Below are positions 13,346-63,530 of a stretch of DNA of 64,000 bases, one piece after another. The notes beneath the pieces were generated by a model. The model saw only the letters and a list, made by a program, of their open reading frames with translations, was not told the origin of the DNA and searched no databases. How positions within the stretch are numbered: position 1 is the first letter of the stretch; the number at the start of each line of letters is the position of its first letter. The DNA comes from Moniliella sp. 'wahieum'. Its lineage: Eukaryota. The stretch is taken from the NCBI GenBank assembly GCA_003971905.1, contig RSEE01000011.1, forward strand, positions 124,001-188,000, read 5' to 3'. Both the position numbers and the translations under genes were made by a program.

Positions 13346-13677
13346 CGTCGGTGGGGGGGCGGCGGCGAGGAGGCTGGCCGAGCAGATGCGGCCGGCGAGC
13401 TGCGGGCCTACTCGGCTGAGTCTGGGGGCTGAGTCTGCCTGGGCCCAGCGCCCCCTGCAGGTCACCTGACCTGGGCGGAACGAAGAGCCGCTGGGCCTGT
13501 GCTGGCTGCAATTTGAAATGCACACAACACACGTGACCAGCAGCGCTGCCCCACGGCGACTGTACCCTGCCTGCACACTCGCCCGCTGCCACGCACACTC
13601 GCCCACTGCCTGGATATCGCATTCGCATTCCATGTCACATGTCACATGTCATCCCAAGCATCCTGCATCCCCCCGCG

Positions 13678-14914
13678 CTACGCCGCCCACACCTGCAGGC
13701 GCGCGTCCCAGGACCCCGTGCACAGCGCCTGCCCGTCGGGGCTGACCCCGAGGCACGACACCGGCTCTCGTGGCCCGACAGCACCCCCACCCGCTCCACC
13801 TGCAGCGTGTCCCACAGTTGCACCTGCGGCTCGTCGTGCGCCACGGCCAGCATGCGCCCCGAGTGCGTAAACGCCAGCGACGTGACCGGCTTGCGCAGCA
13901 CCGGGTTCGAGTACTCGGCCAGCTCCCGGTCCGCCCGTAGATCCAGCAGCTTGCTCGTCCCATCCTCCGAGCCCGTCGCAAACCCATTCCCATCGGGGAA
14001 AAAACTCACTGCGTTGATGTCCATCTCGTGCGCATGGAAGCTCTGCACCGATCCCTTGGCACTGTCCACGCGCGTATCCCACAGCTTGGCGTAGCCATCG
14101 CACGCCCCCGAGAGGAAGAGGGACCGGTTGGTCGGGTGGAGAGCAAGGCCCATCACGTCGGCGAATGTTCATAGTACGCGCTTTTGGTCGACCGGTTTCA
14201 ATGTCCCACAGCATGCAGCTCCGGTCGCCCGACGACGTCACCATTTCCCGGTCCGAAATGAAGCGGCAGTGCGACATGAAGGCCGAGTGGCCCACCAGCT
14301 CTCGGGCGGGCTGCGCGGCGTAGGACAGGGAACCGATCGTGTCCGATATGGGATCATCCAGACTCGGCAGGCGAAAGACGTAGCACACATTCTCCAGTCC
14401 GCCCGTGGCCACCAGACGTCCGGAGGGGGAGTAGGCACAGTCCATGACCCATTGGAAGCGGAGAGGTAGGACATGGACCTTGTTGCTGTATGCGTCCCAT
14501 ACCAACAGCTTTCCATCCTGCCCGACCGACACGAGTGCTGCGAGTCGGCAGCCCATTGGAGAGCGTATACTTTAGCAAGGTGGCCCTTGAGCGTGCGGCG
14601 TACGCGCAGCTGGGCGGTGCGAGGGAGAGGGGGAACGGTGCCTTGGCTGACGGCACGGAGTGTAGTATCGCGAGGGCTTCCCTCTGTTGGGCGACCTGTG
14701 CTTTGAGGCCATCGGCCGTGCGGCGAGCGTCGGCAATGCAACGCTGGAGGTGTTCGGCTTCCTCTATTTGCTGTGCTCGAGCAGCTGGGGTAAGGGGAAC
14801 AGTGCCGGCGCTACGCCCCTGAACATGGAGTGGCTGCTGCGCGGAGGAACGGGTGGAGGTGGAGGAGAAGGAGCCGTTGGTGCGGTGAGCCAGCGTGGCG
14901 AGAGGGTAGCTCAT
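13678..14914 (-). CDS. Heterotrimeric G-protein beta subunit (divergent)
   Basis: N-terminal coiled coil, [87 protein letters not shown]. Confidence 0.93.
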
Positions 14915-16783
14915 GGCGGGCAACCGAGCGGAGGCGAGGCGGGGAACACAACGGGCAGGTTGCTGGCGTCGGCCTGTAGTGGGGGGGGAGTCAAGCAGGC
15001 CAAGGCAACAATGCAGACGGGAGGATGCTCGCAGGGAGGTGAAGCGTGAAGGAAGGGGCCAGGTGCAGAGGAGGTGCTGGCCACTGGCCGAAGGGAGGCG
15101 GACGACAGCAGTGGTTTGCGTGGGGATTTGAGATGCGAGGACTGAGTGAGATATGGGTGCGCCTGTCCAAGCAGCCCAAGCGCTGCCGCGCTCACCACCC
15201 TCCGGCCGCACCCATGACGTGTGACTAGTGACTCGCTACGAGCGCCCGAGGCAGTGTGTGGCACGTGGGTGGGATGCAGCAGCGTCACCCGTCACTCGTG
15301 CCGGTCATTGGTGGGTGGAGGCACAACGCCAGTGTGGCGCAGATGCGCCCTCGCTAACCCTGCCGTTTCCGCCACGTGCCAGGAGGCGCTGTGGCGCCCC
15401 GGAGATAAGGGCGACGGAAGGCCACGGCGCTGGATGGGCCACACGCAAAAGGCCACGCAGTTGTCATGGGTTCACCCAAACGTTGCCATGCAACACCAGG
15501 AGGATGCATGATAATCGATAATCGATAGTCCCTGTCTTCCCCCGCCCCTCTCGTACTTCCTCACTGCCTGCGTCTCTCATACGCACTCTACAAATACACC
15601 CCTTGTCCACACTGTGTTGCCAACAACCTGCACCACAATCATATAGGGCCTGCCAAGAACATTAGTTGATGCATGATGCCGCCACCTATACTCTTTGGGG
15701 GGCATCCCTACAAGGTGGGCCAATCTCTGTTGGAAGCGAAGAGATTACGCGAGTGCTAGTTGTTGATAATGCGATAGCCCAGTGATCCCTTGCAGCAGCG
15801 TTTGTGGATACTGTTTGTACCTGAGCCATGTCAAGCGCATGGGCGCGTGAGAGCGTGCGCCATTGTCCACCTATGTACCAGACACCCTACTGTACCCCTT
15901 TTGATGGTCTCTCCTTGTGATGCATGCGATGCAAATAAACGGATGAACGTTGAGTACGTTGAACGTTGAACCGGCCAGTCATATGCTGCCCAAAGTCCCA
16001 CACTCGGCCCCATTACCGTTTACCCAGGTATTTTTGCTTTTCGCAGCTGCAAGTAAGAGAGCCACCCTCCATTTACCGTGATGCATGATGCATTATCGGC
16101 ATATCGATGATCAATATATCAATCGTCGATCATCGAGATCATCGAACATCCCTCTGATCCTGTTGAGGCTGAGGCCAAAGAACAGATGTGGTGCAGTAGG
16201 TCCAGTGCCTGTGGGGCTGTGCGCAGCGCAGCGAAGAGCGCGGATCCTCATTGGCCGGAAGGCCCACGGCGGCAACCGACGACGCGCTCGGGTGCCTGCT
16301 TGGGTTATGAAAGAGGCGCCGGAGATTGCCCTGAGGCTTTTGCCTGAGGGTCTGAGGATCTGAGATCTGATGCATGAGGCCTGAGGGGACGGATGATTGG
16401 TACACGGTGGCCAGTGGTGGGTGTGGCGGCCGGCGGTGGCTGAGGGGCTTGGTGCGGCTTACAATATTGGCAGTGTATCGGCGGGCCATACTGCATACCA
16501 GACCATGCACCATGCCAGTAGACCAGCCCACAGCCATCCAATGTCACACGGACAAATCACATGTCACAATCTCGCATGTCACATGCATGTCACATGACAT
16601 TGTCACAGACGCTGTCAGTCGTAACGAGTGACGCGTGACGCGTGGTGCATGATGCATGATCATCGACCATTCCGGCGCAATTTACCCCAGCAGGTCACGT
16701 GGGTGGCGCAACCCCGTTTCGAGTGGAACGACCGACCCGAAATTTGGTCGTTCTGCCCGTCAACTCCAGTCCAGTAGCAGATC

Positions 16784-17631
16784 ATGACAAAGGCCTCTGA
16801 CTCCTGACTTGGCGGCGGGCGGCAAGGGCAACACAGGTTCGACTCTACCCGACCCCGCCACCGCCATCCCATCCTCCTCCGCTAACCAAGGGGCCATTTG
16901 GGACAGAGTACATCTTCCCCGCCCACCGCGTCCCAGGAAGTGTTGTTGTGCCCGATCCACAGCTGTGCTGTGGCCTCCTTCCAGGGCAAGACTGGCTCAT
17001 TGACAACTACGACAGCTTCGCTTATCTCCCCCGTTCTGCTTCCGGCCAAACCACTATAACCCCCTCCTCCGTCTGGTTTCGTGCAGTACTTAACTGGTCT
17101 CGGGGCCGATGTCGTCGTCTTCCGCAACGACAAGGTCACGGTCGAGCAATTGGCACAGCTCGCGCCGCGCAAACCTGTGGTCATCATCAGTCCGGGTCTA
17201 GGCCACCCGCTGAAAGACAACAGTGGGGAGTCTATGCCGGCCATCCACCTGTTTGCAGGGGCCTGATTCCCGTTTTGGGGGTCTGCATGGGCCTGAAAAC
17301 GATGTAGGCCGCCTACTCGGGCGTGGTGGAGTGTGCGGGGGACATTGTGCATGGCAAAACGTCGTGTGGAGCATGATGGCAAAGGTCTCTGTATGCTGGA
17401 TTGGACATGGCTGGCGTGATCGGGACGCGCTACCATTCGCTCGCGGCCAACATCCATACCCTGCTCCCCCAGCTTGCTGTTACATCCAAGACCGCCTCGG
17501 GGGTGGTGATGGGCATCCAACACAGCCGCTGGGCCATGGAAGCCATCCAGTTCCACCCCGAGGGCATCCTCTCCCGCTTGGGCAAGGGCGTCATTGCCAA
17601 TTTCCTTTCCTGGACCTCGGCTTTGGCTTAG
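16784..17631 (+). CDS. Class I glutamine amidotransferase, anthranilate synthase component II (TrpG)-like, unfused
   Basis: LIDNYDSF, VVVFRNDKVTV, IISPGLGHP, LGVCMG (catalytic Cys), IVHGKTS, TRYHSL, MGIQH, IQFHPEG. Two intron-like segments. Stop at 17629-17631. Start tentative. Confidence 0.8.
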
Positions 17632-18134
17632 TATATTTTGACGGCCGTTTACACTCGTATTTGTCCGCACTAAGCTGGTGAGGCACAAACTCAAGGGAAT
17701 AGAATGACCACAACAACTAACTTGGAATGGAGTAAGGGTGAAAGGTTCTTAACCGCTGGAACAAGAGGACGGTGCCATACCACGAGTGAAGGGTGACAGA
17801 CGGGAGAACAACCAGAGAGGTACTAACCAGTTCGATGGAGCGGGGTTCTAATCGGAAAGCGAGGCAAGTACTGAGATGATTTTGAAACGCTAGTGACAGC
17901 ATGTACGATGCAGGGCAGAAATGAGAGCAATGGCTGGTAGGTACAAATGCGCTATATATTTAGCTGAACGCAAAGGCGTAACCACATACAGGGGCAGACA
18001 CAGGCCATAATGCAAACTCTTGAGCAACGAGCACAAATCGTACAGGGGAGGGTATAGGATGAAGAAATAAACCAAATAGAGAGAGCACAACCTCAACAAG
18101 GAGGAGTGCAGCGGGGAGGAGGGCAGCGGGATCC

Positions 18135-21100: not shown

Positions 21101-21617
21101 ATGTCTCGGCGCCATCCCACCGGCTCAAGGCGGCCAGGCCCAGTGGAGCGACACGGCGGGTGGTACGCAGGTGGGTCTCATGGGCTTTGATGGCCATCTC
21201 CGCATCGGTGAGGACCTCGCGCGCAAAGGCAGCGACGGCGGCGGAGGGGAGCCCGGTGACATGCGGAGGCGCGTTGCGGAGGAGAGGCACGAGCGCATGA
21301 GCACGAAGGCGGTCGTGATGGAGAGAGCGGGCGCCGAGGAGGATACGGAGGAGGACCTCGTCGAGCAGCTGGTGCAGCGCGGCCAGGGCATCGGGGGAGA
21401 GGCGCACGCGCCGACCAGCGGCATGGGAGGCGACGCGGGCAGCGTGGGCGGCAGGGACGAAGGCGGGGGCGGGCGGAAGGGTGGGCGGGAGGCGCGGGAG
21501 GGCGACAGGGCGAGGCGGGGGGCGGCGGGCAGGCGCGGCGGCAGCGGCGGGGGGCGCGGCACTGCAGGAGCGCGGCGGCGGGGGCGCGCTGGGCGCACGG
21601 GGGGCGCCGCGCAGCAT
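18135..21617 (-). CDS. Fungal hypothetical protein with helical, possibly histone-fold-like, N-terminal region and long Ser/Pro-rich tail
   Basis: Chain of long minus-strand ORFs. Helical segments LSPDALAALHQLLDEVLLRILLGARSL, EVLTDAEMAIKAH, LSAVLQALAEAVL, VSVQDLATAL. The family assignment is inferred from pattern only. Confidence 0.55.
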
Positions 21618-21949
21618 GCAGGGGAAGGCGGCCGCTCCCAGCCGACGCAGCCTAGCCGGTGGTGGTGCAGGGGGGCAGGTGGTGCAAGGGGGCAGGGCGC
21701 AGGGCAAGGTGGCGCAGGGCAAGGTGGCGCAGGGGGGCGCACGTGCATGGTTATCATGTGATGTGCAGGTGACGAGTCAGTGATGCATGCGTGATGCGCT
21801 GAGCCTCACCACGGAGCCAGGACTCCCGCATTCCGCCCGGCTCTCTGGTTCCGCCGCGTGGTTCCATTTCCATCGGCATCTACAACCATTTCGGCCAACC
21901 GTGCCAGCCCCTCCCTTTGCCACCACCACCACCTCCTCCTCCACCCGTC

Positions 21950-22974: not shown

Positions 22975-23264
22975 CTGATGTTGTCCGCTCTCCCCTCTGT
23001 ATCCCTGGTTCGTACCACTACCGCAAAGATCTACAACGAATATTAATGTTGGCCGCATACCAAATTTGATTGGGAAGACCAATTATCCTATTTGGAGAAT
23101 GGTTGCAGGAGGTGCATAGATAGGCAAAGCCAACGTACGAGCGAAACTAGACGTTGGTGCTTTGTGGACCGCCCCCAGGCACAGTCATACGTAGCTAGAC
23201 AGGATATAATAGGAAAAAGAGAAACGGGCAGAGAGAAGGGGAGAAAGAAGCCTGTAGAAGGATC

Positions 23265-25686: not shown

Positions 25687-27987
25687 GGAGAGGGGGGGGG
25701 GGTGGTGGTGGAAGGGAAAGCACGGAGTGCGGGCCGGCAGTCGCTGAACTTGTTGGATTCGCGGCTGTCGTGCTCGGCTGCACAACCACTAGGCCGACTG
25801 CCAACAGCACAGCACTGGCGCCGTGCCTTCCCCACAAATCTGCCGAGCCGACACTGTCAGGATGTCAGGTGCCAGGGCGGCTGGCGCCGTGCGGCCGGCC
25901 GGAGGCATCGCTGCAATGCTGCACTGGGCGAAAGCGAAGCTGGATTGAGGCGCAGGGCGCCAGTGCCGCCCGTGCCTGGATGCGCTGCGCTGGTGTGCTG
26001 CTTCCGCTGAGCGCTGAGCCAGGGCCTGCCGGGGCAGCCGGGGGAGCTCCCTGGCGCTCCTCCGCACTGGGCCGAGTTGGCGATGCACGTGCCAAGTACG
26101 TTTGTGGGGCAAAAACAGGCGACGGCAGAGCGGATCAACGTCAACCACGTTAAACGGCAGCTGGCGTTTGTGGAGTGATGGGTGGTCCATCCTGTTCTGC
26201 CTCCAAGCTCCATCGACCATCGCCGCCCCACTCGAACTCCATGCTAGCTCTCTCGCCACACTTGCCTTGCCCCAGTTGGCCCAGTTTGGGGTTTTGCACA
26301 TGCGTGTGCCGCAGCCGGTCGCAACCCCAGTCGCAAACACATGCGGCCGCTTGGGGATGTGTGATGCCGACGAGATGTATGACGCGTGACGCGTGATGCA
26401 TGAAGTTAGAGCGGCCCCGCCTGGAATCTAAAGTGTCTCAGCAGGCCCGCCAGTGGCCCGCGTCGGGGTAGAGAGGAGCGCTAATTGCTAGCTGCTGGGG
26501 ACTCTCTCGGTTCTCGAACCGCATGCTCATAGGGGGTGTGGCAAACTGCGGGGTACCAGCGGGCACCTGGCTACCGTCCCCCAACCACTTCCCCAGCTGC
26601 GCCCTCGTGCCCAGGTCCCAGCTCAGAAACAGGAGGGCAGCAAATGCGATCATTCGATCATCAATCATTAAACACTGCTGCAGAGCACATGTGGACAACC
26701 ATATATCCGCGAGTGGGTATATCTCCATCCCTATATATCACAGGGTGCCCCAGGTGCACCCCCCCCCCCCGCCCCCACACCGATGCACACAGATCACCAC
26801 CCCACCGACACACTCACCTATATGTGCGCCCACTAGGTATTGACCACAAATGGTCCAGAGCCCTCCGTCGGCCTGCAAGCTTCAGTGACTGGTGACTAAC
26901 AATGACACGTGATATGGCCCGATGATACACACTGTCCATCTCTGGGCAGTGTGTCCCCGACTTGCCACGAGCTTCCACTGGCCTCCGAGCCCGGAGCCTA
27001 TCAATATATCACAGCCCATAGGTCCAGCGTTCCGTACCTCTGGAATACCATCTCCATTCCATATTCCCCCTCGCCAGGATCGCTAGCAACCGACTACCCC
27101 TGTACACGTGACATGGCCATCTGTTCTTCTTCCAATAGAACTGCGGCCAGCACGAAACCCCCCAAGCACATATTTACTTGCGGGAAACAGTAATAAACGC
27201 TCAACGTTCAACGTTCGACCACTTCCTCTTCTCTATACACCATCATGCATCACATTCGTCACGTATACGAAAGTAAGCATGGCGGTTGTATACACAGTGA
27301 GATTCGGACTCAACGGAGTGCTGACTACTAGTTACTGACCTCAGGCTTGTGGCAGCCTGAGTTGAACACGTTGAACGTTGATGCATAAGGCCTAAGGCCT
27401 AAGGCATGACGAGCGCGTCAGCCCAGCTGTCCATCCCTCTTTTGTGCCAGTAACCCTCGCGTCCGCACGTCCAAATGAGACGAGAGGTGCATGCTCGACA
27501 GATTCTACTCAGTACTCAGTACTCACAGTCGAAGATATATGTTCACACGGCCTTTCGGCGACCTCACGAGATCGAATGGACAAAGGAAACAAGGATGGGT
27601 AAAGATAGTAAAAATAGGCACCAAGATGAAGAAAGCAAAACATCATCACACATGAAAAGGTGGATCGGTCAGATCGATCGGGAATAATGAGAGTGTAGTG
27701 GAAACATCCCTATTCAAATGCCACACCCTCAAAGGAGAGGTAGGCAAGAGGGAAATGTATGCAGAAGTGGAAGGGTATCAGGACCGCTTGCGGAACGGCT
27801 GAGGTAGAGAATGTGTGGCCGCTCGACAGGGACAAGTGACAAAACACACTTGCCTGCTGAGTGGCGAGAAAAAACAAGAAGATGAAATGTACGGGGAGAC
27901 AGAACTAAGGGCTCTGGTCCTTAGAAGAAGATACAGGCAGTGCGTCTCCTGCAACAATGGCAATGGCAGGGTCGGTCGGAGGTGTGT

Positions 27988-30900
27988 TCAACACTGGTTT
28001 AGACGCCGCATCGGCTGTCTTGCCCAGAACGGCAGATTGGGGAGCAGATTGGGGAGCCGCTTGGGGAGCAGATTGGGGGCTGTGGTCCTCTTTCCCTCGT
28101 CCAATTCCACCACAGGGGGCACAGTCTCGACCTTGGCAAACGCAGGCGGCTCCACCATCGTCTCCGTAGTGGTATCGGGGGAAATGTCGGTATCCTTGGT
28201 ATCCTTGGCAATGGCAGGATCAGCTGGGGGCATGCTGAGCGTGACATCCGGCTGGTTAGTAGTAGGGGCGGGGATGATCTTTGCATCCTTGGTCTCAGTC
28301 TGCGTCGTGGACCCTTCGGGTTGAGGCTGGGCACTGGCCATTGTAGCTGTGGGGGGGAGGGTCTCAGCAGCGTTTACCATGGGAGCCAATTTCAACTGCT
28401 CGGCTTCAAGGGGCGTAGCAACAGAGTCGTCCATAGCTTGCACGTCTTGGCCGATGGTCTTCTCGAGTTCAGCGGCCGTAAGGGTGGTGTCGGGGGTGGT
28501 CTTTTCCTCCAGTTCAACTGCTGGGAGGGCCACTCCCTCCTTTGCCTCGGGCACCGGCTTAAGTGTCTGGTCCAGAGGGGCATCGGGTCCCCTTGTAGTG
28601 GCGACCTCTGAGGCCTTGATACTTGCGTCCGCCTGAGGATGAGGCACCTGTTGAGCGGTTGCTTCCACAGACTCGGCGCCTCCAACAACAGTGGGGTCGG
28701 TCTTGGACGCGGGCGCAGTTTCTCCGACGAGAACGGATTCCTCATCTACCTTAGGCTCGTCAAGGATGGTCTTAACGTGCTCCGGGAGGTATCAGCCACT
28801 TTCACCTGGGGCTTGGAGACCAAAGGCTCTTGGTTTGTTAAAGAGGAAGGTGCCCCGCGCATTTCTTCCTTGAGGGGAAGGGCAGTCTCAACCTCGTTAA
28901 CTCCGGTAGATTCTTGAGCCTTCACAGTCACTGCAGGCCTGGGCAGTTCTTCTGTAGCCAGACTAGCCTCGCCCCTTTCCATCTCCTCGGCCGGGTGGGG
29001 CTGCAAACAGGATCAGTTGCGCCGGAAGGCAGCCCTTCCTGTCCCTCCTTCTCAGCCGTGGAGGGGAGGCCCACAGGTGTGGCAGCCTCCAGAGGAAGGG
29101 GATTGGCAACCTGAGCCTCCGCTTCCGGTTCCACAATCGCTGCAGCCGCCGCCCGGTCGTTGGGACTGGTTCGGACGGCTTGGGTTCCTCAAGAATAGGT
29201 GCTGGCGCGACTTCACCCAATGGCTCGGCAGTTCCCTCGGCAGAGAGGATGGCAGTTTTGCTTGCGTGCCCTCCTCCACTGCACTGGCCTCAACAGGTGG
29301 CTGCGCATCCCCAACTTCCTTGGTGGAAATGTTGGCCGTCGTCTGCTCAGGCTCCACTTCCGACGCGGACTCAAGCAGGTTTGAAGCCTTGGAGACCTCC
29401 GGTTCATCAACAGACTTGGACAGCGAAACAGGCTCGGGTTGCGGGGCGAGCTTGGGCGACTCCATTAGCTCAACCTTCTGGGCAGGTTCAGGCTGTTGAG
29501 CAAGTTCAGACTGTTGAGCAGGTTCAGGTTGCTGCAAAACCTTTGCTTGCGGAACAAGATCAGTCTGCTCGGCTTCCTTCACAGGTTCAGATGACTTATT
29601 GTGCTTGGATTGCTCAACGGGCTCGGCGATTTGTTCGCGTTTAGTCTGCTCGGTAGGCGCGGAGCTGGGCAGTCCTTCAGTCTTCAGTTCCTTGGTGGAA
29701 AGAGGCAGACCCGTACCCTTCGCTTCCGATGAGACTCAGGGGTCCCTGCAAGCCCTGCGGACTGGAACCGGGAAGCGGCAGTGGCCACGCGGGACGCGGT
29801 GGAAGCAGGCGGCGTGTACGCGGGGCTTGACTGGTCTTCAACTTGGCCAGATACGCATCACGAATTGCGGCAGGGGCACGAGCCAAAACAGATGGGAGAG
29901 CGCGTGGCTTAGCACGGGCTTGGTCTCGCTCTTGTCCGTAGGGTGGTCCAGGGGAGCCTCGGGCTTTGGGACGGCATGTTCAACGCGCTGAACCTCATGC
30001 GTGACTTTTGGCGCGACTGTGGTCGCGTCGGAGAGCTGAGCAGGTAGGGGTGCTTGAGGAGCGATCGTCTCCTCGGGCTCTTTAATTTGGGTGGGTTCAG
30101 TCGTTGCTTCCGCAGAGATAGGCTGAGAAGCAGGAGGTTCAGTCTCTGGTTTGGATGATTCCGATGCAACGCTCTCTTTTGTAGGTGTGGCCGCGCGCTC
30201 TGCACTTTGGGAGGCAATTTCGCCGGAGTCAGATTCAGTCTCAATGGGGCAGGCGCAGGGGCAGAAGACGGTGCGGCAGGAGGCATCTCCGTCGCGGCTT
30301 CGGTGACTTCTTCCATCTTCTCCTCACTCGCTTGCTTCGACTCTGCAACTGGCTTAGTAGGCGCAAACTCTTTGGCGGGTTGCGATCCAACAGGCTGTGA
30401 GGGAGCCGAAGTGACCTGTACTTCAGCGGTTGGGGTATCAAGGCCCTCCGGTTCCTCCAGAGTAGCATCCGTAGGGCCAGCTTGTTTCTCTCCAATCGGG
30501 TCCGGAACAATATAGGTTGATGTTTTCGGAACAGGAGTGTGGCCTCAAGTGTTTCCTTCCTGGCGGGCTCTTCCGTGGTGGTGGGCCCTTCCTTGGTGGT
30601 GGGCTCTTCCTTGATGGGGGCTCTTCCGCGGTGGTGGGTTCTGCGGTGGTGGAATCCGCCGGGGTGGTTGCCGTGGTGGGCTCCACCGTCGTGGTAGGTT
30701 CCACGGTGGCGGTGGGCTCTGCCGTCGTGGTAGGCTCCACCGTGGTGGTAGGCTCCACCGTGGTGGTAGGCTCCACCGTGGTGGTGGGATCCACCGTAGT
30801 GATGGGCTCCGCCTTGATGGCATCTTTTTGGGAGGGCTTCTCCTGGGACAGATCCTTCTGGGCTGGTTCCATCTTCATCTGTTCCTCATAAACATGTTCC

Positions 30901-34480: not shown

Positions 34481-35315
34481 TCGTCCGCCTATGGCGTGTA
34501 CGAAGTAAGTAACGGCATGGGGCAGATAATAGAGGCAACACAACGTTGGCACCTCCTCATGCCATGCAATGTTGACCACCCTGGTCCTGCCCCGCAATCC
34601 CGCGCAGCGTCACGTGACATTGGAGGATTTCTCTGTGGTTGGGTTTGTTTCAAAACAAGCGAAGTACCGAGTGAGAAATTAGGGCTCGCCACCGGCTACT
34701 AAGTACACTCGAACAACAGCAGTACGTCAGTAATCATTACCCTTTTCGGTGATCAATTAAAGCTACGGGGTCTTGTGCTCGTTCGGACATGAGGAGCATG
34801 AGGCTGGAAGGGAACTCCTCGGCCCGGACATCTGCTCTGTGCAGGACAAGAGATCAGGGCGCTTGCCTAAGCGTGTACATATCATGGGGACCCAACCCGA
34901 ACGGAACGCAATTGCGTCCTCCTATCGCCGCTGCGGCGTAGTATATCCTCGTTCAAAGAAAAGTCGACGGCTGAGCGCTGACTTGGCTTCTGTGGGCATC
35001 CGGCCTCAGGCGTCAAAAGCTTCAAGCCTCAATGAGCGTGTCGGGAACCGATCGAGGCAAGGCCGAAGTCCGCGGGGCTGGAGGTGGGGGCCTACTTGCC
35101 CCAAACAATACTATACACGCTAATGCGTATACTGGATCTTTCGCTAAGTGCGTCGAGTACGTCACTACTTATTCCTGCCGGGTATATAATAGGGAGACGC
35201 CAACACAGATTGTCTCGCACGCTCGCATCTTATCCCCCACTCCCTTCACTTCCATCATCATCGCACCCCTTCGTCCCGGGGCCTCACCCAGCCACCACAG
35301 CACCGAGTTGCCAAA

Positions 35316-38680: not shown

Positions 38681-38702
38681 GGGGGGGGGGGGGGGGGGGG
38701 GG
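38681..38702. repeat. Poly(G) tract, 22 nt
   Basis: Directly visible homopolymer; length is unreliable in a long-read assembly. Confidence 0.9.
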
Positions 38703-39233
38703 TCCTTGGACAGCACACCTTGATGGAGTAGGGAGTCACCAACAGGTGGTGATGGTGTCTGTAGGAGAGTCCTTCGCTAGGTGAACAGGTGTTGCTAAGA
38801 GTAGTAAGAGATGGGGAAGATGGAGGGTGTCATTCAGAGGAGTCCTAGGCGGACTGGTAGATAGAAAGGGGAGAGCCGGTGTCAATAACAGAGTGGGTAC
38901 GTAAACCACATGCAACCATGGGGTTTATTCTACGTGATCACGCTGACAGGTGTGTCGGGAAGTGCGCTCGAACTGTCCGGTTGCCTAGTTCTCCGCTGGC
39001 ACGCTATGACCTTCTCAGCGCGTACTCATTCAACTTGTTACAGAGCTTATTTCGACAAGCGGGACGCGCGACAGGCGACGAGAGCGAGATGGTCGATGAT
39101 CGATGAACGGCCACTGGGTCACTACATGTTGCACTAGTTGCATGACAATATTTTCTTCGCGCGAGTGACCCTGCCCTCAGCGGCCTCGGTGGCCCCACGC
39201 CGCAGGACAGCACAGCATGCTGTGGCACCCAGG

Positions 39234-39376
39234 CAGCTGGGCTCCACCGTGATGTGGCACCTGACATTGAATATTGAGCACTGGGTAACTCGGCGCGCGC
39301 GGGACACACTCCAGCGGGGCTCCACAGTGATGTGGCGCCTGACATGTGACATTGAATATGGAGCACTGGGTAACTC
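39234..39376 (+). repeat. Direct repeat pair (about 58 and 65 bp) upstream of the retroelement ORF
   Basis: CAGC(T/G)GGGCTCCAC.GTGATGTGGC.CCTGACATTGAATAT.GAGCACTGGGTAACTC occurs at 39234-39291 and 39312-39376. Copy 2 has an extra TGACATG. Confidence 0.9.
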
Positions 39377-42300
39377 AGGGGCGCCGGACTGGCTCTGTGT
39401 TTTAATCACCCATTCCACCTTCTTTTTTGGGGGTGATGATCGACGAAACAGCGCCCCCAGGCCTCAATTTGAGGTGGTACGGTCAAATCTCGCTCCGCAA
39501 ATCTCAGCTCGATCCTTGTACGGCCCCTGGGGATGAAGCGACCACAGCCGCATCCCCTTTACGCGAACTGCATGCCCTCCCCCCACCACTTCCCCGCCAC
39601 CATCTTTCTGTTGAGCCAGTACTGCCACTCTACAATGCCCCCCTCCCGCACCACCAGGACGTCCCAGGCATCGCGGACCAACAACGCTGCTCGCCGGCCG
39701 AGGGACACACGACTTCTTATCAACCCTGAGCCGGAGCCCGTGGTGGAGACTGCTTTCGAAGGTGACGAACCGTCCCCTGAAGAACCATCTGGTGGCACCA
39801 GTGGGGTCAACAGCGATTCCGACGGCGATTCCGACGGCGACTCCGACGGCGCAGAGGGAAGAAAGGAGTACGAACCGAGAGTTACGTTGTTGTCCCTCTT
39901 CCCCCCTGATTCCCGTGTTTGTTCGTGAAATGATTATGCGGGGTCAATCGAACCAGCACACGACGACGACGAACAACGATGAAGATGCGCTGGATCTTGA
40001 CGCTGACACCTTTAACCCCCGCACAATGGACGCTGACGAAGAGAGTTTCGTTAATCAGGACGAATTTGCTGGCTTTCCCCCTCTTATCGCATCGGTGGTC
40101 AAGGTGAGGCTGGCTGGGGCATTGGTGGCGCAGGTGGTGCCAGTGGCGGCTTTCAGCGAGGAAAGTCTATGCGAGATCAAGACTCTTCGGGTGCTCTTTT
40201 TGTCAAACAATGCGAAGCAGGAATCGCTGGCCAGCAGCTTTCCCATGTCCAACCCACCCCAGTATTTCGATCGCTTGCTGGAGCACAAAAGGTCAGGACC
40301 ATCAGCTCTCGCTGCGCACCCCAGGATTACCTTGTACTGTACTGACATTTTCTCTTTGTATGAAGGGATCGCCACCGACGGAAATGGTACAAAGGGGCGT
40401 GGGATGGGTTTGTCTGCACCGCGAGAGCAGGATCGGCTAACAACAAGGATTTAAGTTCTGGTTTTCGTCGGCAACAGGCTTGTTCCCTCGAGGTTTCGAA
40501 GAGGTCAATTTTGACCCGGGACACCTGGCCCATATGCGACAAAAAGTTTGTCCAAGTTCTGTTGACGGTTCCTAAAGCCGACTTGGTCGACCATGCGTCG
40601 TCGCATTTTCGATTTATTGGCGGTACGTTTCTATGCTTACACTGGTTATTACTTGCCCCTAACCTAACCCATTGCTGTGGAGGAGAAGGTGGCCACACGA
40701 AAGATGGTGGATGTGTGGTCCTGGCTGCTGAAGGGGCATCAGGTTTGAAGCAACGTTTAAGGCCGCGATGGCGAAAGTTGATGTGGCCGCAGGTCAGAAT
40801 GGACACGCTAACCCACCCAAAAGATACCTAAAAAATGCATTTGATCGAACGAAAAAACCCACTTGGAACACTTGGAATAGGAACCATTTGTCGCGGCCCC
40901 TATAACGTGGGAATAGAGAGTGGTGTGGATTTTTAGGATTCAATCAGAAACGAATTTCGCAGGTATACCCCTAGCGCAAATGCACAAGGTTAAGCTAAGC
41001 ATCTATTATAGAGAGAATGGAAAAATGGCGCTCACGCTACCGTGATCATACGTGGCTTTAACGCTACGTGTGCGGGAACTCGGGTTTATCCTAGAAAAAC
41101 CCCGCAGCCGTGATGTCCGGGAATAATGTTGCTTTCTTGGGCGCCATGAGCTACGGGAATACTCATGTGTGACTACTATCTATAAGCGTTTCTTCTCCTT
41201 GTGCCTCCCTGTTTCTAAACGTAGTGGTGGTGAAAGCAGCCCCGTTTTTTTCGCTTTTTTCGCCTGCTTAATTCGTCTGCTTGGCACGCGCAATCGAATG
41301 GATGCCGGCTAGCGACTGGACCCAACATCGTGTGGCGCCACACTGATGTAGTGGCGCCTGTAGCTCAAGCCCGGAACCTTCGGGTTCATTCCTTCCAATA
41401 TTCCATCCTGGAGGGCAGGAATATTCTCTACCAACACGTTCAACACTGTGCGCCGTCGCACACTCGCCAAGGCGCTCCATGCCTACGCCCCCCACCTCCT
41501 CACCTTGGGCCGGTGGATCTATGGTTCCCCCACCCAGCTTTGGGTTGCGTCGGGCGGAAATGAGACCAGCGTCCTGTCGGCAGAGGGCGTGCGGCAGGGC
41601 GACCCCCTCGCCCCCTTTTTCTTCTCCATCGCAGTGCGGCCCACGCTAGAGAAGTTGAGCATTGCTCTGCCGCCGGGGCACACTGGTGATGGCATACCTG
41701 GACGACATTACCATTTTCGGTCCAGAGCCAGGCATTACCGGCCAAGCTGCGGAGATTTTGGAAGACGACGCGTCAGGCCTCAAGCTCAACCTGCGCAAGT
41801 GCGTCGAGCGGGACCGGGACCAGATCCGGGAGGATGGTCTGCAGGTTCTGGGCACTTGTGTGGGAGGGGTAGACTGTCGTCGATCGTGGCTCCGGCCCAA
41901 CTGGCCAGTCTGAGGGAGAACATGCCTAAGTTTGATGGCATCACCCGCCAGGGACGCCTCTTACTATGGCGGCTCAGCACTCAGACCAAGCTGCGCCACC
42001 TGCTCCGCACCATGCAGATGGAAGGAGAGCTAGACGAAGTGCTGGCCGAGATCGATGCCTTCATCTGTACGGAGTTCAGACGGATCCGGGGCGACGAGGA
42101 TCCCCAAGGTGCCAAGGACGACCACTTCGACATGCTCATGAGCCTGCCTCTCCGGCTAGGAGGATGCGGCAGCCTGCTTTACTCGTATATCGCGCCCTAC
42201 GCCCGTGCCGCGGCCAACGAGGTCAACGACTATCTTATTACCACTTATGTTGACCGTTCGGGACCGCAAACGGCAGAGGCCAACGCATTTACGAAGCAAC

Positions 42301-43230: not shown

Positions 43231-43992
43231 AATGAAATGGACGTTCTCTAGCCTCTCTGTAGCTCATGTGCAATGTAATTGTCACCGAATGACTAAGCTC
43301 GCTCCAATTTCCAATTCCGCATCTGTGTCTCTCGCTTCCCTTCCCTTTTGCTTCTGTTCTCTGCCTGATGCCTTCTGTTTCCTCCCACGAACGATCTTGC
43401 CTTTCCCCCGCCTCTGACAGGACCTTGGTCTCCCTCGTCAGTAATACACCATCAACTGCTGCTCTCTGGTCTTCAATACATCATGCATCATTCGTGCACG
43501 TGCACGTGGGCGTGGTTGGGCGTGCCAGCGGTGTCACTCCCATGGGAGTCACTGAAATGGAGGGGGCACGTGTTCCTAGCAGTGTTCTTTGCCCGTGCTG
43601 AGACGCCGAGGTCTGGACCGTGCTACGTACGTTTACCTGGATTTTCCTCTGGGGTAAAACCGACGGCAATCTCAATAGTCAACGTCAACGTTCCAGTTAA
43701 TATCGGACACCGGCGTCCGCTCGGTGGGCGAGAGTCCACCCTTCGGCTCGTTCTACCTCCGCGGCGCGACTATGGCTGCCAATACAGACGCACACGTACA
43801 CACACTTATACACCTCGTACCCATTCGTGCATAGCGGCACAAGTGCCGCCTGGAGGCGCTGATCAAGCTGAGCCGCGCTGATTAGCGTTTAAACGTTTAA
43901 CGTTCAACACGGTATATATACGAGGAGGACCACGGGCCTACGGCCCGGTCGGCTGGGGCTTCGCCCCAGCTTGGTGCTGTGTCGCCACCTTA

Positions 43993-44867: not shown

Positions 44868-44971
44868 CCCGTCGCTGGGCCGGCTGCCTCGGCTGCTGTA
44901 TCCCTTCCCTCCGTGCCTCGCCGCCCCCGAGCAGTTCCTCCCCCTCCCCCGCCCGCGCTCCCCCAACTCAC

Positions 44972-53656: not shown

Positions 53657-53836
53657 GCACTAATAGTAGCCTTGGTCCTAAAATTGATGCACTTGTGCTT
53701 ATTCTTTTGCAACTACATCTATATTGTGCCTGCCAGGTGGATATTAGTACCAGACAGAAGATCTTTTTGAGGAGACGGCCTGGGAGGCCCTGCGTGGTGC
53801 ACGCTTCGTGCATCGCTAAATAAGGGGACGATAGGA

Positions 53837-54625: not shown

Positions 54626-56527
54626 GGTGGTGGAGAGCAAGCAATTTCTTCGGAGGGTGGCCACCCATCCGGTTGTAGCCTGCGGTAGCCCCACTGCGGC
54701 ATAGGCGAGTGGACATTTCAAATTGGGAACACCCCACGCGTAGAAGTTGATGGTTGAGTTTCAACGTTGATGCCCTTGAGCATATTTCATTCCCCTGCCG
54801 TGAGAAGTTGGGTGCCTTATACGAGTGTTAACATGACAATGAACGCGATGAAGTATATCATTGACTTCCAGACTCTGCTGGCCACCGAATTGCCACTCTT
54901 CTGCGCAGTAGGAATGGTGGCAAGTTGCATCAGCCCTCTCAGAGAAGACGCGTCTGAGAAGACGCGTTTTTCGTCGTGTACCCCACCCCCCGTTCAAGAC
55001 GCATATCTGGCCGCCTTCGTGCTTACCGAGTTCCTATTAGAGGCGTGTGCCCCCACACCATAAAATGCCCAGGCTTGAACTTCATTTCCTGCTCAGCTGT
55101 TTTGCCGACTTCTGCCACGGCGGTTCTTTGAGAGAACATCAGTGCGTGTTACGACTGTGAAGCGCAATATTGCCGGCCTATTTTGAGGACGCCGGGCTCA
55201 CACGGGAACTTCCGTGACCGCGTGAACCCCCTGTAGTTTAGGGGTATATAATATAAACGTTAAACCCTTGGACAGGCCAATCATTGTCTCGTACGTTAGG
55301 TCCTGCTTCAACTGGTTGAACGTGTTGAACGTTGAACCGAGCGCATGTAGAGGCGAGGGAGAGACCCTCTAGTTTGGGTGGCTGCCTGTGCAAAGGCCAC
55401 GGCCCAGACCCTCCGAGGTAGGAGCTGCGTACTTAGGTCGTTAGACCAGTTGAAGGGGTCAGGAGCTCCGAAGTTACTCTGTTCCTCGCAGCGTTACCAC
55501 ACTCGGTATGCTGTAGTAGGCGGGAACAGACAAAGTCCTAAAGAAGAGCAAGCACTACTGATGAGAGTAACCGCGGCTTGCAGCGTACTCGACGGAAGTC
55601 GTGAATTCGTAAGCGTAAGGGTGGTAGAAGGGGGCCGAAAGCGAGAGAGGAACGGGTAGTCGGGGAGACCAAAGACAGGATGGTCGACAAGGCCACAGCT
55701 AGCAAGCCTTAGGCATGGCTGCTTATATTTAACAAAAGGAACCAGGCCTCAAGTGCCCCATGACAGGTATAGACAAATGCGGGGCAGTTTCCAGAGAGTA
55801 AAACTAATGCCACATCCCGTGCTCTCAAAGGCGCTCTGACGCTGCGTAGTCGGGCGCAGCAGGAAGGGTTCTGCCCAGACTGAACGCATGGCACAAGCAT
55901 CGTACCGATGAGCCTATGCGGCCATGCACCATGGTGCATGGCAGGCCGCAGATGATATAATCCGCAGTTGGATAAGGTGTCGTCTGGCTCTCGTCGTCTC
56001 GCTACTCTGTTGGGCTGATGAGATGTCTACGACATGCTGGCTTATAGCGTCCGAAGATAACTTTGAGCGCTTGTAACATGTAACAGGAGGTGCGGAGTTG
56101 AAGCCCATTTCGTGTTCCTTCCAATATTCATTCCTGGAGGGCAGGAATATGCTCAGATTCTGTAGCTCATGTGCAAGGCAATAATCTTCTACAGTACCTT
56201 CCTTACAATGGCCTAAGGCGTAATCCTGTCGGCCGATTATAATGAGCCAGCTGGTGGCTTGGATGGCGTCCCTGTCAAAGATTCTAGTGCGGCGTAGCGC
56301 TGTGACGAAGGTGTGACAGAGCATGGCTTACGGCATGCCCACCGGCTGCCAGCACTGTCGCAGTCGCCGCGCGCACGCTCATCGACATCGATGAGCCGCC
56401 GAGCTGGCACAGCCCCGAGCGGCCCATCTATCGCCCCCTCTCCGTGCCTCCACCCCACATCTCCCGCCGCCACCGCCGCCCTATTCTCCTTCCACCCTGT
56501 CCAGCGACGCCCGCTTCCTCCTTCACC

Positions 56528-58243: not shown

Positions 58244-60780
58244 TCGATGGCCATGTACCAGATCCTACGCTGCGCCCCGTGCTGCCCCTTTCGTTGGTCA
58301 CATGCTGGTCTGTGGAAGAGAAAGGAAAGAGTGACCTCAGTGGAGGGGGCGGGTGGATCTCTTGCCTTTTCTCTGTCGGGAATGGACTTTTGTTGCAGCC
58401 CTAGGTTCCGGCCCTTTTCCGTCCCTTTGGATCTTACCTCTTCTCCCCTACGACCCGCCTCGCCATTCGTACGATCCATCTCTCTTCCTTGTTGCATCTG
58501 GCCTTGGCATAACCGGACCAGTAGTCTCCTTTGGATGTCCAAAGAGGAATGCATGCAACCTCGAATCTGGGCTTGAAGTGTGTGGAAGGAAGGAACGAGG
58601 ATAGGATCTAATACATTCGTACCACCTACGCGTCAACGCCAACTTGGTCGACACGTCATCGTGTCAACGTTCAGAATCTCAGATGAGACGTGCAGCGTAT
58701 ATACTTCGACTGGCGACTAGCAACTAGAGCAACTCCCGCTCTCGATGCTGTGCGGCAGCAGTGTGGGGCGCCCCAGTTACTGGTTTCACACACGTCACGC
58801 GTCACGACTGGAGGCGGAAACAGCGCCCTGCTTGCAGCTGCGGCAATAAAATGCACCAGGGGCTTGCGCATGACGCGTGACGCGTGACGTGACGGCCGGT
58901 GTCTTATTCCATTCCCGGTTATACCCTCTGTCACACGTTATACCCGCTACCGAATCTCTCTAGATGATGAGCTGAATCGCGTTACGCGCGATTTTGGCGC
59001 AGCACGAGAGACAAACAGAAGTGTCCAGAAAGGCTTCCTCCACGTCCACCACTTGCGCGTGAGAAGCGTCGCGTGTGGCTCAGGCTCAAAACGTGAATTC
59101 AATATTCATAGGCCTGAAGCTCCTGAAGAGACCGTGAAGCTGAAGCTTTTGAAGTTGGTCTGTACTCAGCCACATGTATTCTTCACACGCCTGCTAAGGT
59201 ACTTTTTTTATTACTTGTACTCATCATCCATGTATCGTCATCATGTGCCCGACCTTATGCCATCTCAATATCTCTCACTTCTCTCTTTTCTCATCGTCGT
59301 CGCGCGCCTATAATGCCGACTGTGTCCGGCACTCTCTTATACGTCGTGCCCCTGACGGACTTCCATCGCTGTGCAGCTAGTGAGTGATCCACATGACGCA
59401 CATGCGTATCGATCATCTGTTTCAGATGCCATCAGCCCCTCTCTTTGTCAAGCTATTGAGGCCTCCTGTGAAAGAGTAAATGACAGCGGAGTTGCGGCAG
59501 GGGCAGAACATTATATCGCGCGTGGACTTGCCCATCCATCCAACCAAGGTTCTCCCGGTGCGCTCTCCTTGTTGGCGAGACACGGTTACGGTTCTGGTTG
59601 CAAAATATGATCTCGAATTCTCCGATAGCTCCTGGACCCGCCTCAGCACCTCCGCGACCTCAGCTGAAATGCATTGCATGTATTTCATTCTTCTTTGAAC
59701 CGGGCTGGCCTCCTGTCCCACAAGACATGTGGCATGCTATATACGTCATGAATCATGCACATGTGGCAAGCGCAGAGCCAGGAAGAGCCCTGGGTTCGAA
59801 CAACGCCTCCTGAACTTGAGAGCCTTGAAAAGCTTGAAGCTCGGAGCTTATTGGGTACGGCGATGTACTGAGGGGTTATTGAACTCTATGCAATATGCAC
59901 TGCTCCCCACACTCTCTGTGGCCTCTCTCTCTCTTTGATCCTGTCTCGAGCCCAGCGCTCGCCTCGACGTGCTTTCGATCGACTGTGGGCTCATAGACTG
60001 GTCTATGCCATCGTATTCAAGCACAATTGGTCTTAGGTGATGCAGCGGTGCGTACTAAACGTACTGAACTCAGACTGAGTACTAAATTACTGAGCGCGCG
60101 TACTGGGCGCGCTGCTGAGCCTCAGTCCTCAGGCTGAGGGGCGCTGTGAACGCGGAGCGTGGAGCGCTGACTCTGAGGCCCCACTGTGCCGGTTAATTAC
60201 ACGTGAAACGGTATAAACATAGCGTTAGTGTGCCTTCATTAATCATTCGGCGCAGCAGGGCAGCACAGCAGCGTAAGCTTGCCCGTCAGACTGACGACTG
60301 ACGACTGAGTCTCAGATCCTGAGGGAAGGGTGTGCAAGGGTGCTCCCTCAGCCTGTGCACCCGGCTCTCGCACCTGGCCTGTGTGGGAATACGGTGTCGT
60401 CGGGGGATGGCATGGCTCCCCCTGTGCCTGCCCCTGCCTTGGCTGGGCGGCGATAACGACGTGGCTGGGCGGCCCAGCTCAGCCGCACAGGGGCACCCAG
60501 GAGGACGCAGCGCCTACGCCGGCCTGCCAACCGCGCGACCCTTCCGACCCTGGCCAGCGGAGACGCGCACGCTGCCGCCATGCGGAGGGGGGGGGCCGCA
60601 GGGGGCGAGCCAGCATTCTGCCCCTCCGCTGTTCCGGCTGGTCCCTCGATCTGCGCCGATTTTATCATAGACCATCGATCGTCGCGGCGCAGCTACAGCC
60701 ACAGCCCAGCCACAGCCACAGCGATCCAGCTGGACTGCGGCGGTGCAGGCCAAGTCTGTGGGGGGACTCCATCTGCTCCG

Positions 60781-60874
60781 TCTCCATCTCCATCTCCATC
60801 TCCATCTCCATCTCCATCTCCATCTCCATCTCCATCTCCATCTCCATCTCCATCTCCATCTCCATCTCCATCTC
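60781..60874. repeat. (TCTCCA)15 hexanucleotide microsatellite
   Basis: Perfect array ending 25 bp before the putative MAPK ATG at 60900. Confidence 0.97.
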
Positions 60875-60899
60875 GCCATCCCCCACCCTGATCGCCGCC

Positions 60900-62653
60900 A
60901 TGTCGACAGGAGCTACCTCGATACCTGTGCGCGCTCGCCGTTCACGCCGTCCCATCCACACCCACCTCCACCAAGTGCCTGCTCTACCCTTCGCATGGTG
61001 GCTCCCGATGCTTCACCCCTTGGAAATGGCTGTCTGCCGATCCCAGAAGCCCCACCAAAGGCTGCCGACTCTCTCATGCCCTGCGCCTTTGACCCCGAGC
61101 ACTTGGACGCGATGGGGTACCACACCTTCCAGTGCTTTGACACAGCCTTTCATGTCCATAAGCGTTACTCCTTTGTGCGCCCCCTTGGCTTTGGATCGTA
61201 TGGTTCTGTTGCCCTGGTGCACGACGCTGTGCTCAATGTCCACTTGCGTACGCTCAGCTCACCCCCTAATGTGCTGTGCCCGCAAGCCAACTGACCCCTT
61301 CCTTTTGTTCACAGTCTCAAGAAGATCAACCAGGTTCTGCACAGTGGTACGCCGCCGCGCGACATGCGTTGCGCGAGGTAACCATCATGCGCCACATGAA
61401 CGAATGTGACAACTCTGCTGTCCTGCTCGACATTGATGCCGCTTTGTTGAGTGGGGGGAGCTCTACCTCGTCATGGCCCCCCCGAAGCAAACCTAGCTCA
61501 GATCATCCGTTCACGACAGTCTCTCAGCAACGAGCATCTCCAATACTTTGCGGTCCAGCTACTTCGCGGTGTGAGCTACATGCACGCGGCGCACATTATG
61601 CACCGTGATCTTAAGCCAAGTAATGTGGTGGTCAATTCCGATTGCACCCTGCGCATTTGCGATTACGGTCTGGCCCGTGCTTGGTCCCACGGATCCCTGT
61701 CCAAGCTGGCGCCCGCACCTGGCCTGCCTGTGTCGAGACGCTGGACATGTCACCAGCCGTGTCTCCTGGGGTCCGATCACAAAAGTCGACCCTCAACGCC
61801 CATCGCAATTTTTACGTGCCGGAGAACCATTGTCTTCGTACGTGACAACGCGATGGTACCGTGCCCCCGAACTGCTCCTGCGCTTTTGAGGGATACGGCC
61901 CCCCTGTGGACATGTGGGCAGTGGGATGCATTCTCGCCGAGCTTCTCCTTGGCCGACCCCTATTTCCGGGGAATGACAGCCGTGACCAGGTTCGCCTTAT
62001 CTCCCAAGCTCTCGGCCCGCCGGGCTATCGGACGGTAGCCAAGGTTTCTCCTAAGCTGAAGGGCAAGCTGGGGAAATTGTGCGCCCAGGAGCCGGTGGAG
62101 TGGTCTCAGATATTTGCCGGCTGCAACCCACAAGCGACAGACTTGGTTGCTAAGCTTCTCTGCTGGGACCCCACCGAACGGTTGACCGCCCCAGAGGCTC
62201 TGGCCCATCCTTGGCTTGGCGCATACCACACCGCCTCGGTCCAATTCTCCGAACCCCAACCGTTCACTGCATTTGATACGGTTGAGGCCCACTTCGTCCA
62301 CCCGCACGAATGGGTGCGAGCGTTCCAAGAGCAAGAACGGGTGATGCACCATGATGGCCCGCCTTCTTCTCTGAGGCAGAAGGTGCCTGCTGGTACTTCG
62401 GATTGCACCCCGTCGCTTTTTCTCTTCTGACGCACTTCCCACCTCTCCGAGCACGACGGCGACCAGCGTGGCCACGCCCACCTCCCTCCCTTCGCTCGAT
62501 CCATCGTCCAAGACGGTATCCCAGACGGGCAAGCACAAGCCCAACCACAAGACGGTTGCTTCCTCGCTCTCGCTCCTCCTCCTAGGCGCGCATGGACTCC
62601 TCGTTTCGGGTCCGGGTGTCGAGGTGCCCCCCCATGATCTATGGGACGTCTGA
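60900..62653 (+). CDS. MAP kinase family (CMGC), atypical
   Basis: [122 protein letters not shown]. The 3' end is uncertain. Confidence 0.9.
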
Positions 62654-63530
62654 CCGTTATCGCGCAACCCACGGTTACCCTCTCCATGCCTTACTTCTGT
62701 TGTTATACCCAACACTTTCTCATTTTATGCTGCCAAATGCAATCTTTTCCCGTCATCATAGAAACATTGCATGTGTTCCAGCTAGCGATAGCGTGCACCT
62801 GATTTAGGCAGGCGACTATAGCTCTGCCGTCGAGAATGTTGGCCGGTGGAGGACACCTTCTGAATACTTTTGCTATATTAAGAGCCATGATACCTCTCTG
62901 TTCCTCAGTTTAGAAGGAATTCTGGATCGCGTGGGAGAACTTCGCACTCCTTGGTATCATACAGAGGATGCTGTTCATCATTATTAGTGTTTTGAAGAAG
63001 CGGGGGGAATCGAAGGCGGGGTGTCCAAAATTGGACGTGGTCTGTAATATATATGGCGAAGATCGAGAGAGGTGTGTGCGATGGTGATCGCTGCACGGTG
63101 TCTCCGCATGCACTGGCACACTGCTCTGACTCGCGAGCCTGCCTGCCAACAGGCCGATATTCATTGAACGTTATTGAGGACGCCAAACATGTCGTGGCCC
63201 CAACCCACATCTGCAGTCTCTCTCAGGTCTCACCCTAAGCACAGGACCCACGTCCAACCAGGCATGCACGATCCACATGAAGGTCTGAGATTCTGAGATC
63301 TCTGAAGTCTGATGTCTGATGCAAAAGCCAGAGAGATAAGGTTGAAAATTGAAATTGGATGTATCGGTGCAACCACATAGAATGACGGGCGATTCCTCCG
63401 CAGGGGCCACAGGGCGGAACTGGGTGATAGGGGGGTGCTGGTTGGGTTAGTGGATGGCGCAGATGAGGGTGCACATCCAGATGGGGGCGTGCAGATCGCT
63501 TCGTCAGCCCCACCGTCTCGTCTCGTTGGG

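Follow-up and report, generated by a model that had tools for sequence, protein, structure and literature searches.

Cut-and-paste DNA transposons of the hAT, Transib and MULE groups, like the RAG recombinase, leave flanking ends closed as hairpins, which are opened by host enzymes, and the end joining that follows leaves footprints (PMC5499845). The footprints of Ds have been explained by nicking of such hairpins, imperfect pairing, ligation and mismatch correction (PMC1978519), and in Candida, yeast and plants Ac/Ds leaves footprints with palindromes of P (palindromic) nucleotides, which centre on the base complementary to that bordering the element (PMC5873905). Across yeasts and plants hAT footprints are heterogeneous, with 28 types among 128 events (PMC5873905), and elements with 7-bp target duplications have been described in basidiomycetes, namely hAT7 in Pucciniales and Kyakuja in Laccaria (PMC12730594). 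Here we analyse a 64-kb stretch of fungal DNA (the window, whose numbering is used throughout) in which short heptamer repeats are scattered, each made of a T-N-A anchor (TNA, where N is any base) and a 4-bp palindromic core. We consider that these heptamers are probably scars left by the excision of a cut-and-paste DNA transposon, one that makes a 7-bp nnT(N)Ann target duplication (N mostly G or C) and whose flanks are hairpinned at excision.

Results

Palindromic heptamers occur far above chance

The heptamer pattern is real and lies far above chance. A first-pass annotation of the window had described short in-register arrays of TGA or TAA plus a self-complementary tetramer, and all 18 places that it listed carry this pattern, three of them imperfectly: 16575-16592 is a period-11 variant, 15944-15970 has an extra GT, and the anchor of 43888-43906 is not constant in its middle base (TAA/TTA/TCA). 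We counted 27 exact period-7 tandem duplications, compared with 4 at period 8 and 6 at period 9, while 5.68 ± 2.28 are expected at period 7 from 200 block-wise second-order Markov simulations. A 6-bp palindrome, in every case of the form A-NNNN-T, is present in 18 of these 27 duplications (0.54 ± 0.71 expected), and period 7 makes up 23 of the 103 rows returned by Tandem Repeats Finder. Likewise, a 4-bp palindrome between two TNA anchors with the same N was found 41 times, against an expectation of 1.98 ± 1.31 (100 simulations). The comparison of palindromic spacers with background that the annotation had proposed was run: 41 of 75 TNA-N4-TNA sequences are palindromic, as are 31 of the 50 that lie in DNA free of open reading frames (ORFs), against a background of 6.25% of 4-mers. 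Nothing special was seen with other spacers (N2, 9/25, with 25% expected; N6, 0/62; N8, 1/34).

The anchor and the cores had to be redefined in part. TGA and TAA both occur, as first described, but the true anchor is T-N-A, with an oriented middle base that is G in 20 cases, C in 17, A in 5 and T in 3 (n = 45), and that is G or C in 18 of 19 isolated events. Among 77 generic 12-mers of the form pqr-xyy'x'-pqr-xy, the T.A anchor is found in 45. The cores amount to 12 of the 16 possible 4-bp palindromes and not 11, the commonest being TGCA and ACGT, tied at 7 of 41 each. The remark that this is unlike ordinary microsatellites holds, with units that vary under one rule, namely 12 different cores of a single construction.

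The core is mostly an inverted copy of the bases flanking TNA

Every elementary event lengthens a TNA site by 7 bases, turning abTNAxy into abTNAxy-y'x'-TNAxy or, as its mirror image, into abTNA-b'a'-abTNAxy. The added bases are thus a direct copy of TNA with two flanking bases, plus an inverted copy of two flanking bases. In 35 of the 41 TNA-bounded palindromes one half of the core matches the two bases that flank TNA; the match is to the right flank only in 13, to the left only in 12, to both, in arrays, in 10 and to neither in 6, where a right-flank match compares the first half of the core with the bases after the second TNA and a left-flank match compares the second half with the bases before the first TNA. 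Because the core is an inverted copy of these flanking bases, the palindrome is generated by the event and is not a pre-existing target. The full product, TNAxy followed by two inverted nucleotides and TNAxy, was observed 45 times against 0.32 ± 0.61 expected, while other combinations of copy length and inversion length are mostly near expectation. The exceptions are two TNA-anchored period-7 classes (8 against 0.28 and 22 against 0.30), which partly recount the same arrays; unanchored 6- and 7-bp duplications are likewise above expectation.

An unscarred version of a scarred site was found in one case, within an intergenic local tandem duplication of about 85 bp (39236-39376), whose copies lie at 39236-39291 and 39321-39376. 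Copy 1 has the empty site ccTGACAtt and copy 2 the filled site ccTGACA-TG-TGACAtt (39340-39351), the difference being exactly 7 bases (TGACATG). An older AT-TGA-ATAT-TGA scar is common to both copies (39266-39277 in copy 1), with one anchor mutated to GGA in copy 2. Since the older scar is shared and the +7 event is present in a single copy, the pair provides an empty site, a filled site and the order of events.

Variant forms require a 7-bp target copy

The dominant +7 form retains 5 of the 7 bases of one target copy; three rarer classes keep more. The plain tandem, abTNAxy twice without inverted nucleotides, was found at 3 loci (29675, 60290 and 63308), corresponding to 6 strand hits against 0.13 expected. 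They are a TCA-centred duplication (CTTCAGT x2, 29675-29688) and two TGA-centred ones, ACTGACG in nearly 3 copies (60289-60308) and TCTGATG x2 (63307-63321). Five loci carry the +9 form, abTNAxy-y'x'-abTNAxy, and a single one (16577) the +11 form, in which both inverted dinucleotides are kept; for each the expectation was 0.00 in 40 simulations. The clearest full 7-bp copy with 2 P nucleotides is CCTGAAG-CT-CCTGAAG at 59113 (59113-59128), where the target is not palindromic. Further +9 variants are GATCATC-GA-GATCATC at 16128-16143, GTTGAAC-AC-GTTGAAC at the head of 27361-27404, where it is followed by GT-TGA-ACGT-TGA, a TGCA core and a three-copy TAA-GGCC array, and GTTGAAC-GT-GTTGAAC in 55315-55337, where it overlaps the +7 scar TGA-ACGT-TGA-AC. 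The +11 form, TGTCACA-TG-CA-TGTCACA (16577-16594), is what had first been read as an irregular "CATG" array at 16575-16592.

Both copies of the target duplication are kept at the joint in these forms, as a TNA-centred 7-bp copy in the plain, +9 and +11 classes. Since all three require a 7-bp copy, the target duplication is probably 7 bp long (nnTNAnn). Our first parse, a 5-bp target duplication plus two inverted nucleotides, was set aside given these classes. Plain 5-bp duplications show no clear enrichment (10 against 4.9 expected), and the symmetric 5-bp product that carries both P dinucleotides was found a single time.

Two possible variants, both in coding-like GC-rich DNA, may be due to chance: GCTGAGG-CC-GCTGAGG at 9566-9581, a +9 form that would be in frame, and a +8 form at 25855-25869.

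The putative scars are concentrated in ORF-free DNA and many are decayed

After merging, the 45 hits gave 30 perfect loci. ORFs of at least 150 aa leave 34% of the window uncovered, and 25 of the loci are there (binomial P = 3e-8). The first-pass annotation had placed the repeats only outside coding regions and often upstream of gene starts. The first statement is largely correct: ORF-covered stretches hold 5 of the 30 loci, of which 4 lack coding support and 2 sit at an ORF end; coding support was judged with an approximate map of codon-usage log-odds, as G+C at third codon positions gave no discrimination. The second also holds for most loci. Ten of the 25 ORF-free loci fall within 15236-16800 (P = 2e-5), the divergent 1.6-kb stretch that separates G-beta from its neighbour, and the others lie mostly within about 1.5 kb of a gene 5' end on an approximate gene map. 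It fails for the array at 13631-13651, which begins 26 nt past the likely G-beta stop codon and so lies in the 3' untranslated region (UTR). There are no scars in the three convergent intergenic stretches, which hold too little DNA for significance.

Loci decayed by one substitution number 32, against 9.44 ± 2.80 expected, and TNG or CNA anchors are frequent at array edges. This excess and the decayed edge anchors point to a long-running process, which, as a rough inference, would have been active long enough for a few percent divergence.

Individual loci

The coordinates of individual features carry no strand assignment. Single one-sided +7 scars are found at 15222-15233 (TGACT-AG-TGACT), 15667-15678 (TGATG-CA-TGATG), 16557-16568 (TCACA-TG-TCACA), 27241-27252 and 43479-43490 (both CATCA-TG-CATCA), 34970-34981 (GCTGA-GC-GCTGA), 55254-55265 (TAAAC-GT-TAAAC), 59097-59108 (ATTCA-AT-ATTCA) and 60236-60247 (TCATT-AA-TCATT). 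A +7 scar TGA-TGCA-TGA-TG lies at 16079-16090, with comparable scars at 26006-26019 (TGA-GCGC-TGA-GC), 56072-56085 (TAA-CATG-TAA-CA) and 58793-58806 (TCA-CGCG-TCA-CG). Decay is visible beside two more, TCA-ACGT-TCA-AC at 27201-27212, where the next anchor has become TCG, and GA-TGA-TCGA-TGA at 39095-39106, which is preceded by a decayed TGG-TCGA unit.

Tandem arrays include three with three copies, (TCA-CATG)n at 13633-13651 after the likely G-beta stop, TCA-GTAC at 27507-27525 and TGA-CGCG at 58871-58889, besides an array with TAA anchor and TCGA core at 15510-15523. The TGA-ACGT array at 15944-15971 has an extra GT in one unit, and that at 43890-43908, TAA-ACGT-TTA-ACGT-TCA-AC, is degenerate, the middle base of its anchor varying. 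Cores are mixed at 26380-26403, where TGA-CGCG x2 is followed by TGA-TGCA-TGA, and in two chains: 16359-16386 holds three cores (TC-TGA-GATC-TGA-TGCA-TGA-GGCC-TGA-GG), the middle TGCA being off the flank rule, and 16629-16659 reads TGA-CGCG-TGA-CGCG-TGG-TGCA-TGA-TGCA-TGA, with one decayed anchor (TGG).

The pattern is nearly lacking in other fungal DNA

The control DNA came from 80 metagenome loci with GSY1 homologues of 51-77% identity, the closest having 77% protein identity, and amounts to 496,586 bp around these genes. It contains 7 of the 12-mers that obey the flank rule, equivalent to 0.9 per 64 kb, and 25 palindromic tetramers between TNA anchors, 18 of which are off the flank rule. The pattern thus appears to be specific to the lineage of the window, being near-lacking in about 497 kb of other fungal DNA. 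Two long metagenome contigs of other fungi carry, in about 21 kb each, 3 (L079, at 1771, 7293 and 7458) and 2 (L030, at 8465 and 20583) flank-rule scars, when about 0.1 are expected; their GSY1 sequences are 65% and 74% identical, respectively, to that of the window. The same process may operate at a low level in other fungal lineages.

Genes and other features of the window

The window has a G+C content of 58% and holds fungal genes for G-beta, glycogen synthase (GSY1), LTV1, a MAP kinase, a URC1-type GTP cyclohydrolase and others. Among named organisms, its glycogen synthase is closest to those of Ustilaginomycotina, with identities of 72-75% (Tilletiaria, Exobasidium, Pseudozyma flocculosa, Ceraceosorus, Ustilago and Tilletia), and on this sequence affinity the window is therefore taken as DNA of a smut-related basidiomycete (Ustilaginomycotina). 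One protein from an assembly is 86% identical to the glycogen synthase of the window.

Other repeats were noted in passing. A 40-nt block with 93% identity between its two copies (41389-41428 and 56115-56154) lies upstream of two different genes, with flanks that do not align, and holds inverted GGAATATTC / GAATATTGG-type arms, whose spacing is presumably like that of heat-shock elements. A large minus-strand gene has long in-frame repeats of 18/36 nt (TGGTGGGCTCCACCGTGG-like) at 30543-30820, a (CTCCAT)16 hexamer array occupies 60776-60874, where the MAP-kinase gene region starts, and an intergenic run of 22 G is found at 38681-38702.

Discussion

A model of insertion, hairpinned excision and joining

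A short series of steps would account for the observed forms. Insertion at nnTNAnn would create a 7-bp target duplication, and at excision each flank end would be sealed as a blunt hairpin. A host nuclease would then nick the hairpin 2 nt off its tip, leaving one strand with 2 additional P nucleotides and the other 2 nt shorter. Direct end joining between a long and a short strand would give the constant +7, with a core that comes from the right or the left flank. Fill-in before joining would yield the +9 or +11 forms, and opening at the hairpin tip would yield the plain duplication. Every scar adds a TNA whose flanks are unchanged, so that repeat visits would build in-register arrays as well as chains with different cores, such as that at 16359-16386.

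Several observations weigh against reading the heptamers as excision scars. No copy of the putative element was found in the window: a transposase domain was found in none of 118 ORFs of at least 150 aa and 21 ORFs of 120-148 aa, these 139 ORFs gave no Pfam match to the hAT catalytic or dimerisation domains, and no paired terminal inverted repeats with a 7-bp repeat on either side turned up in it. A search of the window for 7-bp direct repeats around inverted ends returned 9 weak candidates, none of them TNA-centred, a TNA-centred search for a resident element gave 0, and the motif CTCACTG is present 5 times in the window (12.3 expected) without paired ends. The density of scars, 30 perfect loci in 64 kb, implies very many cycles of insertion and excision, and one form dominates here, against the mixture of 28 types that 128 events gave in published hAT footprints (PMC5873905). 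Finally, cores that fit neither flank are in excess (6 against 1.7 expected). Three of them are TGCA cores within chains, at 16368, 26394 and 27379 (the last with mixed anchors), and our attempt at a stepwise derivation of these three failed. The frequency of TGCA and the TGA-TGCA-TGA(TAA) units in chains hint at a preferred CATNATG target or at older events that were overwritten.

Alternative explanations

The dominant product can also be parsed as TNAxy + y'x' + TNAxy, which would suit a Transib-like or hAT5-like element with a 5-bp duplication (TNAxy) and 2 P nucleotides on one flank only; its even palindrome, without a central complemented base, is of the blunt-hairpin type known from RAG and Transib. 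We nevertheless regard such an element as improbable, given that the +9 (5 loci), +11 (1 locus) and plain TNA-centred 7-bp (3 loci) forms need a 7-bp copy, and that neither the count of plain 5-bp duplications nor the single symmetric product with both P dinucleotides speaks for it. It is unlikely, too, that a host activity independent of any transposon, for example a domesticated transposase or another nuclease, breaks TNA in open chromatin and that repair writes the +7, even though no element was found in the window and the events, which cluster near gene 5' ends, show great uniformity. A 7-bp direct copy together with inverted dinucleotides needs a staggered cut with fill-in and then hairpinned ends, as an insertion followed by an excision would supply, and we know of no single nuclease reaction that would yield both. 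We leave a small but appreciable chance that a domesticated hairpin-forming recombinase, with RAG/Transib-like blunt hairpins and a 7-bp stagger, cuts promoter T(G/C)A sites without an element, or that an undescribed class of element returns to promoters so frequently that it continuously writes new arrays, which are used as cis-regulatory raw material.

That the symmetry is held by function, the heptamers being selected cis-regulatory or chromatin elements, appears very unlikely. In its favour, 25 of 30 loci are ORF-free, most of them no further than about 1.5 kb from a gene 5' end, the three convergent stretches have none, and some cores form what we take to be site-like palindromes, such as ACGCGT. 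Coding DNA would purge 7-base insertions anyway, however, and the scarcity of scars there is therefore no argument for function. Moreover, the 12 cores share no conserved sequence, T.A alone being constant, the core is set by whatever flanks TNA, decayed copies are in excess, one array is in a 3' UTR, and the +7 event differs between two young paralogue copies. Least probable of all is an unusual microsatellite process, in which replication slippage or hairpin-mediated expansion would multiply palindromic heptamers. The three-copy arrays at 13633, 27386, 27507 and 58871 fit it, and arrays of two copies could indeed lengthen by slippage, but 19 isolated one-step events start in non-repeated sequence with an inverted dinucleotide made de novo, slippage predicts neither a TNA anchor nor +9 and +11 forms, and periods 8 and 9 lack a like enrichment.

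Of the four origins that the first-pass annotation had offered, the footprint of a hairpin-driven duplication is the one that we retain, on the grounds of the flank copies, the paralogue pair and the +7, +9 and +11 classes. A promoter or nucleosome-positioning code, sites for a factor that binds spaced TGA repeats and methylation landmarks are not supported as origins, given the variety of cores, the excess of decayed copies and the 3' UTR array. Some scars may have been co-opted later by the host.

What excision scars would mean

If the heptamers are excision scars, the window would hold a dense natural record of transposon visits, its 64 kb containing 30 scars that are intact and about 20 that have decayed. 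It would also show how hairpins are opened and joined in vivo in a basidiomycete, nearly always 2 nt off the tip. The scars would also map the landing preference of the element, near gene 5' ends and in hot regions, and would illustrate one way in which tandem repeats and 6-bp palindromes can form de novo beside genes. They would point to a type of element, so far uncharacterised in smut-related fungi, that targets 7 bp of the form nnTNAnn and leaves its flanks as blunt hairpins. For annotation they would be a warning, the arrays being neither ordinary microsatellites nor evidence of a binding-site code.

Comparison with known systems

It had been suggested that no named element matches the pattern. 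This is correct insofar as our literature search, limited to the excerpts it returned, found no published description of such a genome-wide palindromic heptamer pattern, but the type of scar does fit the published model of hairpin opening and P-nucleotide addition at excision (PMC1978519, PMC5873905, PMC5499845). We also considered CNIRT6 of Cryptococcus as a model and rejected it, as it makes 3-bp duplications (PMC12810828).

Artemis, for its part, opens hairpins with a preference for the +2 position. V(D)J coding joints, made by the RAG/Transib type of reaction, likewise carry an even palindrome that is the inverted copy of the last 2 flank bases, as from a blunt hairpin nicked 2 nt off its tip (PMC5499845). 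RAG and Transib make a 5-bp duplication, whereas the scars described here contain a 7-bp copy, and they differ from V(D)J joints in being germline, spread over intergenic DNA and far more uniform, with no recombination signal or element seen beside them in the window. With Ac/Ds and other hAT elements, to which the Coen hairpin model applies and whose footprints are known from plants, budding yeast and Candida albicans, the scars share the retention of most of both target copies, short palindromic inserts and small trims (PMC1978519, PMC5873905). The Ac palindrome is odd-centred, whereas the scars here have the even form (xy-y'x') of blunt hairpins, as at V(D)J coding joints; in the window the 1-nt-offset form of the Ac type gave 0 two-sided hits and 3 and 4 one-sided hits, which is background level. 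Ac makes an 8-bp duplication and hAT5, hAT6 and hAT7 make duplications of 5, 6 and 7 bp, so that the 7 bp deduced here would fit hAT7 alone (PMC12730594). The likeness to hAT7 and Kyakuja consists in the length of the duplication, 7 bp in Basidiomycota (PMC12730594), and these elements come from rusts and mushrooms, whereas the window is placed in the smut-related Ustilaginomycotina.

The footprints of Tc1/mariner elements carry the terminal bases of the element itself and have a fixed sequence. They, too, are small insertions of fixed length at a short target motif, left after excision (PMC4561436), but the inserted core described here varies and is derived from the host flank. With microsatellites and minisatellites the scars share the occurrence of short tandem arrays in non-coding DNA, from which they differ in having many units under one rule and first steps that start from non-repeated DNA. 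Altogether, the chemistry of the scars is known, while what looks new is that, in a smut-related fungus, a 7-bp nnTNAnn target is combined with P nucleotides of the blunt-hairpin type, along with a near-uniform outcome and a density at which scars build arrays.

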